Shown here: piece after piece, positions 17,925 to 33,542 of the stretch
Position numbering within the stretch: the stretch's first letter is position 1
Layout of the letters: each line of letters starts with the position of its first letter
Virus record (IMG/VR): IMGVR_UViG_2651869781_000011
Strand: one strand, 5' to 3'
DNA length: 34,848 nucleotides
Origin: a virus
Lineage: Duplodnaviria; Heunggongvirae; Uroviricota; Caudoviricetes
Notes under the pieces: generated by a model
What the model saw: the letters and a program-made list of their open reading frames with translations, nothing else
Database searches by the model: none
Told to the model about the DNA's origin: nothing
Made by a program: the position numbers and the translations under genes

Positions 17925-17999
<75 letters not shown>

Positions 18000-18002
18000 A
18001 TA

Positions 18003-18078
<76 letters not shown>

Positions 18079-23293: not shown

Positions 23294-23449
23294 TTACTCC
23301 TCAGGTTCGTAAGCTGTGAAGACAGCGACCTCCGTCTGGCCGGTTCGGATTCGTACCTCGCAGAGGTCTTTCCTCGTTACCAGTGCCGTCACTATGACGG
23401 TTAAACAGATGACGATCAGGGCGATTAACATCGCCTTTTGCTGCTTCAT
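23294..23449 (-). CDS. hok: Hok/Gef-family type I toxin (HokD/RelF-like)
   Basis: 51 aa MKQQKAMLIALIVICLTVIVTALVTRKDLCEVRIRTGQTEVAVFTAYEPEE, checked codon by codon; below the 60-aa cutoff of the ORF track; AAGGAG SD. Confidence 0.85.
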   Translation of the reverse strand: MKQQKAMLIALIVICLTVIVTALVTRKDLCEVRIRTGQTEVAVFTAYEPEE

Positions 23450-23738
23450 AGCCTGCTTCTCCTTGACCTTTCGGTCCGTAAGAGGCTAATCTCTATGTGT
23501 CGCATAGATATGGCCTCAGATTAATGTTAAGCGTCTTGCAGGACGCGTAATGTTAACTGGGGCTTTTCTCTATCTGCCGTTGGTGTTCATGCCTGAGGCA
23601 GATAGCCTCAAGCACCCGCAGCAATTCTACTTAACTCTCCTTTTCCCGCAAATCGTTTTTATCCCCAGCGGCAAATCGAATACACCACCAGCGCCACCGC
23701 CATTGCAATTCCCATCGTTGCGAATGCTTCAGGCCAGG

Positions 23739-29416: not shown

Positions 29417-29824
29417 ATGGAATTTAAAGATTTACCAAAAGAAATCCAGACAATTGCTGCAACGACTCTCGGTGATAGTCTGGTGAAAATTGACCCGGCA
29501 TACACCAAAAAAGAAACCATCGATAATATGGTTCGTAATGTGCGCAATGCTTTTTCTGGGCTATATGGTTCTGATAATCAAAAGCAGGAAAGCGATGTTA
29601 ATAAACGGGTAATTTCTGTTTGCGTGAATGGCCATGTTCTTTCATCAATCAAAACAGAAACGGCGACAGTCTTCGATTGCCTTTGCATTGTACAGAGCCT
29701 TGTTGATGCCCTGTTTCGTTCAGTGAATTTAGAAAATGATGCAAATCTGCGAGGGCGCACAATAGCACATCCATATGCACATACTTTAGGCTCTGTGGAT
29801 ATCAAAGATCCCACAAATCTTTAA
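29417..29824 (+). CDS. Hypothetical protein (135 aa), AT-rich
   Basis: ATG 29417 with GAGG SD at 6-nt spacing; no recognisable motif. Confidence 0.5.
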   Translation: MEFKDLPKEIQTIAATTLGDSLVKIDPAYTKKETIDNMVRNVRNAFSGLYGSDNQKQESDVNKRVISVCVNGHVLSSIKTETATVFDCLCIVQSLVDALFRSVNLENDANLRGRTIAHPYAHTLGSVDIKDPTNL

Positions 29825-30035
29825 TGAAATAGTTAACGCGAATTGTACTTGCTCTTTCAGTTGCTTTCAGAATACGCGTTGAAACTGCTGGCGGTAATTT
29901 GGTATTCCATTTATTAAAATCATGCCCGGGAAAGTACTCTTCGAAAATACTTTTAACTGCAGACTCGCCTATTGAAATGCTGCTTACCATGCGATTTTGA
30001 TAAAGGCATTTAGCAATAAGAGTTGATTTTAACAT
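29802..30035 (-). CDS. Hypothetical protein (77 aa), convergent with the 135-aa ORF
   Basis: ATG 30035 with strong AGGAGG SD; 3' end overlaps the 135-aa ORF by 23 bp; AT-rich. Confidence 0.5.
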   Translation of the reverse strand: MLKSTLIAKCLYQNRMVSSISIGESAVKSIFEEYFPGHDFNKWNTKLPPAVSTRILKATERASTIRVNYFIKDLWDL

Positions 30036-30368: not shown

Positions 30369-30425
30369 TTTTCTGTGACGTTTGGCGGCATCTGTTTGCC
30401 CATGAACTGATGTCCGCCCTTTTTA
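30369..30425 (+). ncRNA. dicF: DicF-like small RNA with intrinsic terminator
   Basis: TTTTCTGTGACGTTTGGCGG...CCGCCCTTTTT resembles Qin DicF as recalled; GGCGGCATC/GATGTCCGCC stem then T5; immediately upstream of dicB. Confidence 0.65.
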
Positions 30426-30593
30426 AAGTGAATTTTGTGATGCGGTGAATGCGGCTAAGCGCACGCGGAACAGTTAAAGCTAAAAACAGTGTTATGGGTG
30501 GATTCTCTGTATCCGGCGTTAATTGTTAACTGGTTAACGTCACCTGGAGGCACCAGGCACCGCATCACAAAACTCATTGTTGAGGACGCGATA

Positions 30594-30782
30594 ATGAAAA
30601 CGTTATTACCAAACGTTAATACGTCTGAAGGTTGTTTTGAAATTGGTGTCACTATCAGCAATCAGATATTTACTGAAGATGCCATTAATAAAAGAAAACA
30701 CGAACAGGAACTGCTAAATAAAATATGCATTGTTTCGATGCTGGCCCGTTTACGTCTGATGCAAACAGGATGCAGGCAATGA
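30594..30782 (+). CDS. dicB: Cell division inhibitor DicB
   Basis: 62 aa MKTLLPNVNTSEGCFEIGVTISN...ICIVSMLARLRLMQTGCRQ; GAGGA SD; matches DicB as recalled. Confidence 0.85.
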   Translation: MKTLLPNVNTSEGCFEIGVTISNQIFTEDAINKRKHEQELLNKICIVSMLARLRLMQTGCRQ

Positions 30783-30969
30783 ATACGGCATTTGTACTCG
30801 TTCTGACTGTTTTTTTGTTTCTGGTGAACCGATTGATCTTGTTATTGACATACATGACTCAATGGAAGAATGCATGACTGCCGCGGCAGAGCAAAAAATT
30901 CCCGGGAACTGTTATCCTGTCGACAAAATTATTCGCATGAACAATAACGAAATCCCGGCAGGCCTTTAA
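30779..30969 (+). pseudogene. ydfD: ydfD-like gene interrupted by a frameshift at a T7 tract
   Basis: ATG overlaps the dicB stop; frame stops after 32 codons; one extra T in the 30810-30816 run would give a continuous 63-codon ORF. Confidence 0.5.
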
Positions 30970-31061
30970 AACAGCCCCATAATAAATATCCGGTTTTATT
31001 TTTATATGTCAGCAATGGCAGGGATTTGTCCACCCTTAAATCTGTAATGAGGTAAAACAAA

Positions 31062-33542
31062 ATGAGTAAAGTCTTTATTTGCGCCGCCATTCCGGACGAA
31101 CAGGCAACAGCAGAAGGCGCCAAACCTGTGGCCACTGCCATTGAAGCAGGCGACGAACGCCGGGCAAGAGCCAAATTTAGCTGGTTATTTCTGGAACAAT
31201 ACCCGGAAGCTCAGGACTGTGCTTATAAATTTCTTGTCTGCGAGGATAAACCCGGCATGGCCCGCCCTGCTCTCGATTCCTGGGATTCCGAATATATGCA
31301 GGAAAACCGCTGGAATGAGGAGTCGGCTTCCTTTGTTCCGGTCGACCCTGAACCGGACGCAGAAATTGTTAACTTTAATCAGTTATCTGACGACAAGCGG
31401 GCTGCTGTCCTTGTCAGGTTCGGTACACATGAAAACATCACCGTGGATATGGTCATCAATGCAAGCGGGCTTCTCGGCGATGACGAGATGACGACTTTTG
31501 ATGGACACCTCGCTGAAGCAATTATCCGGACCAGAGAAATTAACGCCATGTATCCAGAGCGTCAGATTGAGTACATCAACGATGCCAGACGTGATTTAAA
31601 ACCAACAGCCAAATGGCCCGACGTTCAGGCGTATTTTCTCGAACGTAAAAAACGCATGGAAAAGGAGCGCAAAGAAGGTGGCGCATATAATTCCGTCGTC
31701 GATCTTGCCCGCGCCAGAGTCAACCGGCAAGGCACTGAAAACTCTGCAGGAAAAACTGACTCCGTAACTGCTGTCATTCGTCGCGAATACAGGCAGACAT
31801 GGAAAACACTGGATGAAGAACTGGCCTACGCTTTCTGGCCTGGTGATATTGATGCCGGAAACATTGACGGCAGCATCCATCGCTGGGCAAAAAATGAAGT
31901 TATCGACAAAGATCGCGAAGACTGGAAGCGTATTTCCGCATCAATGCGCAAACAACCTGATGCCGTTCGCTACGACCGTCAGACTATTTTTGGCCTTGTC
32001 CGTGAGCGTCCGATCGACATTCACAAAGATCCCGTGGCGCTGAACAAATACATCACTGAATACCTGGCGACAAAGGGCGTGTTTGAGGATGAAGAAACAG
32101 ACCAGAGCACTGCTGATATTCTCCAGCCGTCAGCAGCACAAACTGATGCAGTGGAAACTGAAGTATCTGATACCCAAAAAAATGAAAGCGCGCTGGAAAC
32201 TGAACCATCTGTAGAGCGTGAGGGGCCGTTCTACTTCCTCTTCACCGATAAGGATGGCGAAAAATATGGTCGTGCAAACAAACTTTCTGGTCTGAATAAG
32301 GCGCTGGCTGCCGGGGCTACTGAAATCACGAAAGAAGAATATTTTGCCCGTAAAAACGGCACGTACTCAGGTTCACAACAAAATACTGGTGCATCTGACA
32401 CGACCGCACAACCAGAGCCGGTAAAAGTTACCGCTGACGAAGTAAACAAAATTATGCAGGCAGCCAATATCAGCCAGCCTGACGCCGATAAGTTGCTTGC
32501 TGCCTCTCGCGGAGAATTTGTTGCAGGGATTAGCGACCCGAATGATCCGAAATGGGTGAAGGGGATTGAAACCCGCGATTCTGTAAACCAGAACCAGCAA
32601 GAATCGGAACAGAACGACCAGAAAGCGGAACAAAACAGCCAAAATGCGTTACAAAACGAGCCAGAAACGAAACAACCTGAGGCAGTAGCGCAACAGGAAC
32701 CGGAAAAAGTCTGCACCGCCTGCGGTCAGAGCGGTGGCGGCAACTGCCCTGATTGTGGCGCGGTGATGGGCGACGCAACATACCAGGAAACATTCGATGA
32801 AGAGAATCAGGTTGAAGTTCAGGAAAATGATCCGGAGGAAATGGAAGGCGCTGAACATCCACACAAGGAGAATGCTGGCAGCGCTCAGGACCACGCCAGC
32901 GATAATGAAACTGGTGAGACGGCAGATCCCTTAATTGTGGTGAACGGTCATCACGTTATCACATCCACCAGCAGAGTGTGGTACCACCTGATGATCGACC
33001 TTGAAACAATGGGAACCAACACCAATGCGCCCATCGTGGTTATTGGTGCGGTTTTCTTCGACCCACAAACAGGGGAAATCGGGCCAGTATTTTATATCGT
33101 TATCAGTCTGACTGACGCAATGAATACAGGGGCTGCTCCTGACGGTGGAACCATCAAATGGTGGCTGAAGCAGTCCAGTGAAGCCAGAGCTGCCATTTTA
33201 ACAGACCAGGTAAAACTGAAGGATGCCCTTTCGCGGTTTCGGGAGTTCATCAACGAATACTCAGATGAAAAATTCGTTCAGGTATGGGGTAATGGTGCAA
33301 CTTTCGATAACGCAATTTTGCGCACCTCATACGAACGTCTGGACATCCCCTGCCCGTGGCGCTACCACAACGATCGCGATGTACGCACAATCGTTGAGCT
33401 GGGAAAAACAATCGACTTTGATGCTAGAACCGTTATTCCATTCGAAGGCGTTCGCCACAATGCACTGGATGACGCCCGTCACCAGGCAAAATACGTTTCA
33501 GCAATCTGGCAAAAACTGATCCCGAATCCGGTTGATTTTTAA
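31062..33542 (+). CDS. RecE-like large protein with C-terminal DEDDh 3'-5' exonuclease domain
   Basis: 826 aa; GAGG SD; C-terminal motifs MIDLETMG, WGNGATFDNAIL, HNALDDARH; central ...KLLAASRGEFVAGISDPNDPKWVKG... recalls RecE; Cys cluster CTACGQSGGGNCPDCG. Confidence 0.8.
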   Translation: MSKVFICAAIPDEQATAEGAKPVATAIEAGDERRARAKFSWLFLEQYPEAQDCAYKFLVCEDKPGMARPALDSWDSEYMQENRWNEESASFVPVDPEPDAEIVNFNQLSDDKRAAVLVRFGTHENITVDMVINASGLLGDDEMTTFDGHLAEAIIRTREINAMYPERQIEYINDARRDLKPTAKWPDVQAYFLERKKRMEKERKEGGAYNSVVDLARARVNRQGTENSAGKTDSVTAVIRREYRQTWKTLDEELAYAFWPGDIDAGNIDGSIHRWAKNEVIDKDREDWKRISASMRKQPDAVRYDRQTIFGLVRERPIDIHKDPVALNKYITEYLATKGVFEDEETDQSTADILQPSAAQTDAVETEVSDTQKNESALETEPSVEREGPFYFLFTDKDGEKYGRANKLSGLNKALAAGATEITKEEYFARKNGTYSGSQQNTGASDTTAQPEPVKVTADEVNKIMQAANISQPDADKLLAASRGEFVAGISDPNDPKWVKGIETRDSVNQNQQESEQNDQKAEQNSQNALQNEPETKQPEAVAQQEPEKVCTACGQSGGGNCPDCGAVMGDATYQETFDEENQVEVQENDPEEMEGAEHPHKENAGSAQDHASDNETGETADPLIVVNGHHVITSTSRVWYHLMIDLETMGTNTNAPIVVIGAVFFDPQTGEIGPVFYIVISLTDAMNTGAAPDGGTIKWWLKQSSEARAAILTDQVKLKDALSRFREFINEYSDEKFVQVWGNGATFDNAILRTSYERLDIPCPWRYHNDRDVRTIVELGKTIDFDARTVIPFEGVRHNALDDARHQAKYVSAIWQKLIPNPVDF

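Follow-up and report, generated by a model that had tools for sequence, protein, structure and literature searches.

The ydfD-like gene directly after dicB in the lambdoid prophage analysed here (the window, 34,848 nucleotides of DNA) is a member of the YdfD/DUF1482 family that a frameshift has turned into a pseudogene, and RefSeq already labels its allele a pseudogene. We consider it very probable that this DUF1482 gene was inactivated by the loss of a single T. The initial annotation had described an intact dicB followed by a ydfD-like gene frameshifted at a T homopolymer, leaving open whether this was a pseudogene, a phase-variable slippage site or a sequencing error. The description is accurate in all its coordinates and agrees with the RefSeq/PGAP annotation of identical alleles, and the first of the three options is supported. 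The pseudogene is of a known and ordinary kind, and its weight lies mainly in correct annotation: the proper label is frameshifted DUF1482/ydfD pseudogene, and the ORFs of 32 aa and 31 aa which the lesion leaves behind should not be called genes.

The pseudogene extends over positions 30779-30969 on the plus strand and carries a 1-nt deletion. Its ATG at 30779 overlaps the stop codon of dicB in the arrangement caATGAat. As claimed initially, the ORF that starts on this ATGA overlap ends after 32 codons, which could be read directly at 30779-30877 (+) as well as from the ORF list; the product is MNTAFVLVLTVFLFLVNRLILLLTYMTQWKNA and the TGA lies at 30875-30877. The deletion site is a tract of exactly seven T at 30810-30816 (+), with G on either flank. 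The predicted repair also held, since inserting one T into this tract restores an ORF of 63 codons with the product MNTAFVLVLTVFFVSGEPIDLVIDIHDSMEECMTAAAEQKIPGNCYPVDKIIRMNNNEIPAGL, and the size given for YdfD was correct, K-12 YdfD also having 63 aa. A second ORF of 31 aa at 30874-30969 (+) encodes residues 33-63 of the intact protein; it begins with an ATG that overlaps the TGA of the 32-aa ORF, creating a second ATGA at 30874-30877 with GGAAG before it.

The repaired translation matches the Pfam DUF1482 (PF07358) profile along positions 1-57 of 57 (E 6.1e-23; 80.9 bits, cut-off 25), shares 73% identity with K-12 YdfD, and agrees in every residue with a public protein present on 123 contigs. 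Because of these three matches, the frameshift reading cannot be a chance ORF artefact. The profile match, the size of about 63 aa and the position directly downstream of dicB with a stop-start overlap make the gene a member of the YdfD/DUF1482 family, and the open reading frame of a functional member is interrupted in the window, where the frame shifts at T7 and stops after 32 codons. Among known systems, the gene is closest to that of the 63-aa lysis protein YdfD from the K-12 Qin prophage, which likewise directly follows dicB with an ATGA overlap within a dicF-dicB-ydfD-ydfE operon. However, the frame in the window is broken after codon 12 by the 1-nt deletion, and K-12 has TTTTTCTT with Leu13 where the lineage of the window has a pure T run.

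In the 32-aa ORF, residues 1-12 are certainly native, and Leu13 coincides with the K-12 residue. A collection of 15 billion proteins contains no called protein with exactly this 32-aa sequence. The sole Pfam match of the 32-aa product was to PspB (E 0.0034; 17.9 bits, cut-off 25.6), an identity that we rejected as a chance match below the threshold. Gene callers predict the 31-aa fragment, with its match to Pfam DUF1482 (PF07358), in the source genome as well as in further T7 loci, and the exact 31-aa C-terminal sequence, which serves as a marker of the T7 allele, is found on 34 contigs.

The neighbouring dicB gene (30594-30782, +) is complete, as the initial annotation had stated. It starts with ATG at 30594, its stop ends at 30782, and the encoded 62-aa protein matches the Pfam DicB (PF05358) profile in full length (1-62/62, E 5.9e-39). 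Exactly the same DicB protein is present in public collections as WP_052931686.1. The sole difference from close relatives is residue 2 (E2K), where Lys2 is the K-12 residue: at position 30597, the window and K-12 encode Lys2 (AAA), and nearly all close relatives encode Glu2 (GAA). DicB with Lys2 accompanies at least four distinct haplotypes downstream (L024-L027), and this scatter suggests either gene conversion from K-12-like paralogous prophages or a recurrent G-to-A change.

Upstream of dicB, a DicF-like small RNA at 30370-30419 (+) matches the Rfam model DicF (RF00039) at positions 1-52 of 52 with 41.1 bits and an E-value of 2.4e-7. As this score is lower than the Rfam gathering score of 48, a default Rfam scan misses the RNA. 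In K-12 Qin, dicF occupies the equivalent place upstream of dicB in the same early-left operon. The DicF block (about 30374-30413) occurs as two alternative alleles among the relatives, and a sub-threshold Rfam match to STnc100 (E 1e-6; 38.7 bits, gathering score 47) covers the dicF-dicB spacer and leader at 30431-30571 (+). The next operon gene after the pseudogene (31062-33542, +) encodes an intact exonuclease of 826 aa, which matches the Pfam Rv2179c-like 3'-5' exoribonuclease family (E 1.7e-69); the families YdfE_N and YdfE_C match the identical exonuclease gene in the locus L023. Whereas K-12 ydfE is a pseudogene, an N-terminal remnant truncated by IS2, the 826-aa exonuclease of the window is its intact full-length counterpart.

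We compared the T tract in related prophages, as the initial annotation had proposed, by exact-pattern scans that allowed 5-11 bases between the flanks and by exact-protein look-ups. Besides the window, the T7 allele is present in 16 other loci. These are in the RefSeq complete genomes CAU16175, PS1Thumoskin9 and EPSSH018, each labelled 'DUF1482 family protein, frameshifted' by PGAP, in three IMG/VR contigs, in one MEGAHIT metagenome contig (L024), and in nine further genome or metagenome assemblies, which were recovered via the look-up of the 31-aa fragment. The pseudogenes of the three complete genomes have the same T7 allele and local haplotype as the window, with 99.3% identity over 441 bases, albeit with a few SNPs, one of which gives their DicB Glu2 rather than Lys2. 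Intact close relatives have a T8 tract. The T8 alleles of E. coli DCE7 (WP_001090221.1) and E. albertii NBRC 107761 encode a protein equal to the repaired ORF of the window and are embedded in closely related flanks, but their one additional T keeps the 63-aa ORF intact.

K-12 has the codons GTT TTT CTT GTT at the tract, and one locus identified by the pattern scan carries TTTTGTTT. The metagenome and GTDB-representative scans returned one match each, both T8, which are uninformative on allele frequency. About 4000 E. coli genomes have an annotated DUF1482 gene at the position downstream of dicB. The initial annotation had raised the question of whether the 32-aa product could be the conserved form in relatives. 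It is not, as most relatives carry T8 or TTTTTCTT with an intact 63-aa ORF. The operon has also decayed elsewhere among the relatives: dicB is frameshifted in E. coli Z1323CEC0009, a 1-nt deletion directly before the ydfD stop codon produces a 67-aa form present on 204 contigs, and in L036 two separate ORFs make up the exonuclease gene. The coordinates listed for such decay are L007 1535-1722, L003 1720-1923 and L036 1575-4030.

The T7 allele is inherited. A site-by-site table revealed that 15 of the 16 other T7 loci share the ydfD haplotype of the window (about 30600-31350), and the shared T7 haplotype spans ydfD and about 400 bases beyond. The immunity modules or upstream neighbours of the T7 prophages differ and are of at least three kinds, namely P22_Cro/YdaT, YdaS/HTH or DUF977. 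In an average-distance tree of 2.2 kb, the T7 loci do not form a single cluster. We rejected the polyphyly of T7 suggested by this tree, which mostly reflects a block swap in the DicF region upstream and mosaicism downstream; the ydfD haplotype itself is shared, except in L024. The pattern of the 15 loci fits one old deletion that may have spread through mosaic recombination, as is typical among lambdoid prophages. The T7 alleles contain no secondary stops or indels, with one substitution at 30833 in some alleles only, and because of this the lesion is considered recent on an evolutionary scale.

The exception, L024 (ENA ERZ27281226 k141_102567), has a T7 tract, although it matches the T8 locus L020 from E. 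albertii NBRC 107761 with 99.7% identity over 3.3 kb. Its identity to the window is only 91.5%, and its background is of the E. albertii type, so a single T7 origin fails to account for every case unless a short recombination tract is assumed. Since substitutions private to L024 are located 36 bases before codon 2 of dicB and 153 bases past the tract, its T7 could represent either another, independent deletion or a conversion tract of less than about 400 bases. L024 is the only sign of the T8 tract being hit more than once. The T8 tract may thus have been hit twice, which would make it a modest hot spot.

We propose that the ancestral Leu codon CTT, as in the K-12 sequence, was changed to the Phe codon TTT, which would have created the uninterrupted T8 tract. 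Replication slippage could then have deleted one T, presumably in the direction from T8 to T7, shifting the frame after codon 12 and letting the TGA end the ORF after 32 codons. The broken allele has been passed on and recombined into prophages with various immunity modules in many Escherichia strains. The gene would exemplify how a synonymous-looking substitution from CTT to TTT builds a homopolymer and thereby predisposes a gene to inactivation.

The consequences for function can be estimated from the K-12 protein, the only YdfD for which division-dependent lysis and IspG binding are known (PMC8835842). [quoted passage not shown] The T7 product keeps about 12-13 native N-terminal residues, followed by an out-of-frame tail. 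Because the 73%-identical K-12 homologue needs both ends, the lysis activity of the T7 product is most likely lost or greatly reduced. Residues 33-63 could in principle be made separately, at best, by re-initiation at the ATG at 30874 via the ATGA overlap.

The window keeps its own lysozyme and Rz lysis genes. The loss of YdfD would probably have little cost for a phage with its own lysozyme/Rz cassette, and it may even benefit the lysogen by removing a toxic gene. Because these lysis genes are kept and dicB occurs in isolated phages both with and without a ydfD-like gene next to it, ydfD fits the role of accessory cargo. Furthermore, the persistence of the broken allele in complete-looking lambdoid prophages with several immunity modules suggests that ydfD-type genes are dispensable and not needed for phage release.

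Phase variation, the second option of the initial annotation, would make the tract a contingency switch between T8 (ON) and T7 (OFF) that toggles a toxic lysis gene at high frequency. The tract length does vary among near-identical sequences, as T7 and T8 are both found on an otherwise identical local haplotype (T7 in the clade of the window, T8 in L018 and L025), and the T7 on the distinct E. albertii-type L024 suggests more than one slippage event. We nevertheless regard such a switch as very unlikely. T7 and T8 are the only two tract lengths in 33 distinct loci, and neither T6 nor T9 was found in the IMG/VR, metagenome and GTDB pattern scans, even though 5-11 bases were allowed between the flanks. 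Descent with recombination, rather than frequent switching, predicts a distribution like the one observed, in which 15 of the 16 other T7 loci sit on one haplotype; L024 could be a second event or a short conversion tract. Moreover, the interrupted TTTTTCTT carried by most of the family is unable to switch, and in an enterobacterium proficient in mismatch repair, eight bases make a short run for a contingency locus. The loci compared gave no evidence of frequent or bidirectional switching between T7 and T8, and phase variation is therefore not supported.

We give even less credence to a variant in which the C-to-T change turned ydfD into a mutational hot spot that was hit repeatedly, and perhaps reversibly, in the lineage of the window and in L024. 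The tract would then act as a crude switch of a toxic lysis gene, with traces of the full-length protein still being produced via -1 slippage on T_TTT_TTG.

A further reading, which we judge to be very unlikely, holds that the frameshifted gene is down-tuned rather than dead and maintains a low set level of full-length YdfD, either through a -1 shift of the ribosome on T_TTT_TTG or through transcriptional slippage on U7. Like contingency loci and the programmed -1 sites of dnaX and IS911/IS3, the window has a mononucleotide run within the coding sequence that sets the frame, and a formal X_XXY_YYZ heptamer is present. The heptamer T_TTT_TTG, in the -1 slippery form, lies at 30811-30817 (+) in the zero frame GTT TTT TTG, phased from the ATG at 30779. 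A slip by -1 would produce ...TVFLVSGEP..., which equals K-12 YdfD over this stretch, plus the native C-terminus. However, RNA polymerase slippage is efficient on runs of at least nine, and the run of seven is shorter. The known sites also differ from the window, which lacks stimulatory elements and has an unconserved arrangement with two tract lengths, one of them almost always on a single haplotype. The 84 nt downstream have no stable structure (MFE -13.2 kcal/mol, z +0.69; 153 of 200 shuffles fold as well or better), and there is no Shine-Dalgarno-like stimulator (GGAG/AGGA) in the 30 nt upstream.

The motif itself is also weak: the A-site tetramer U_UUG is barely above background slippage in E. 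coli, and U_UU.U_UU.G is missing from the heptamers listed with more than 0.1% frameshifting without stimulators in E. coli (PMC4066793). Furthermore, the frameshifted arrangement is not conserved, since the homologues are in frame (T8 or TTTTTCTT), and it bears no sign of selection for frameshifting. We thus set aside programmed frameshifting because of the missing structure, the weak motif and the missing conservation. Any recoding rescue of the T7 allele would be adventitious and very low.

The possibility that the true genome has T8 and an intact gene, the T7 being a sequencing or assembly error, is extremely improbable. Homopolymers are classic error sites, and the window derives from a draft WGS assembly, so that the T count is known from the assembly alone. 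However, T7 with the same flanking haplotype was found in 15 other loci from different laboratories and sample types, and T7 occurs across RefSeq complete genomes, drafts and metagenome assemblies, while near-identical T8 relatives were correctly assembled in the same collections. Given its recurrence in 16 further loci, the T7 allele is no artefact of the assembly behind the window, and the error option of the initial annotation is effectively excluded for the allele.

The least credible reading of all is that the frameshift created new functional products, a hydrophobic 32-aa membrane peptide, a coupled 31-aa C-terminal fragment or both: the 32-aa product is indeed strongly hydrophobic (AFVLVLTVFLFLVNRLILLLTY) and its stop overlaps the in-frame ATG of the C-terminal part with GGAAG upstream, but its sequence is limited to the T7 allele and is no called gene in the protein collection, out-of-frame T-rich sequence is expected to read as hydrophobic, the PspB match is sub-threshold, the internal ATGs are the native Met29 and Met33 of the intact protein and hence nothing new, and N-terminal deletions of K-12 YdfD abolish killing (PMC8835842).

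The frameshift pseudogene resides in a complete-looking lambdoid prophage. Its late genes on the minus strand comprise those for the tape measure, capsid, portal, large terminase, Rz, lysozyme and Q antiterminator. The early-left operon on the plus strand contains the dicA-like repressor gene, ydfA/B/C, a two-ORF insert, the DicF-like small RNA, dicB, the broken ydfD, and the exonuclease and integrase genes. The window matches the contig JHRR01000004.1 of GCA_001265575.1 with 100% identity over 6189 bases, and its early region shares 99.1% identity over 10.8 kb with the prophage adjoining yccA in E. coli PS1Thumoskin9. The two-ORF insert, located between ydfC and dicF, consists of convergent, overlapping ORFs of 135 aa (29417-29824, +) and 77 aa (29802-30035, -), the former without a Pfam match. 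Both are hypothetical in RefSeq relatives, and the insert is missing from K-12 Qin. On the minus strand, a sok antitoxin RNA (23447-23617, 102.9 bits) is part of a hok/sok type I toxin-antitoxin locus, and two phage-borne tRNA genes at 17925-18078, for tRNA-Gly(TCC) and tRNA-Thr(TGT), lie directly downstream of the Q antiterminator gene.
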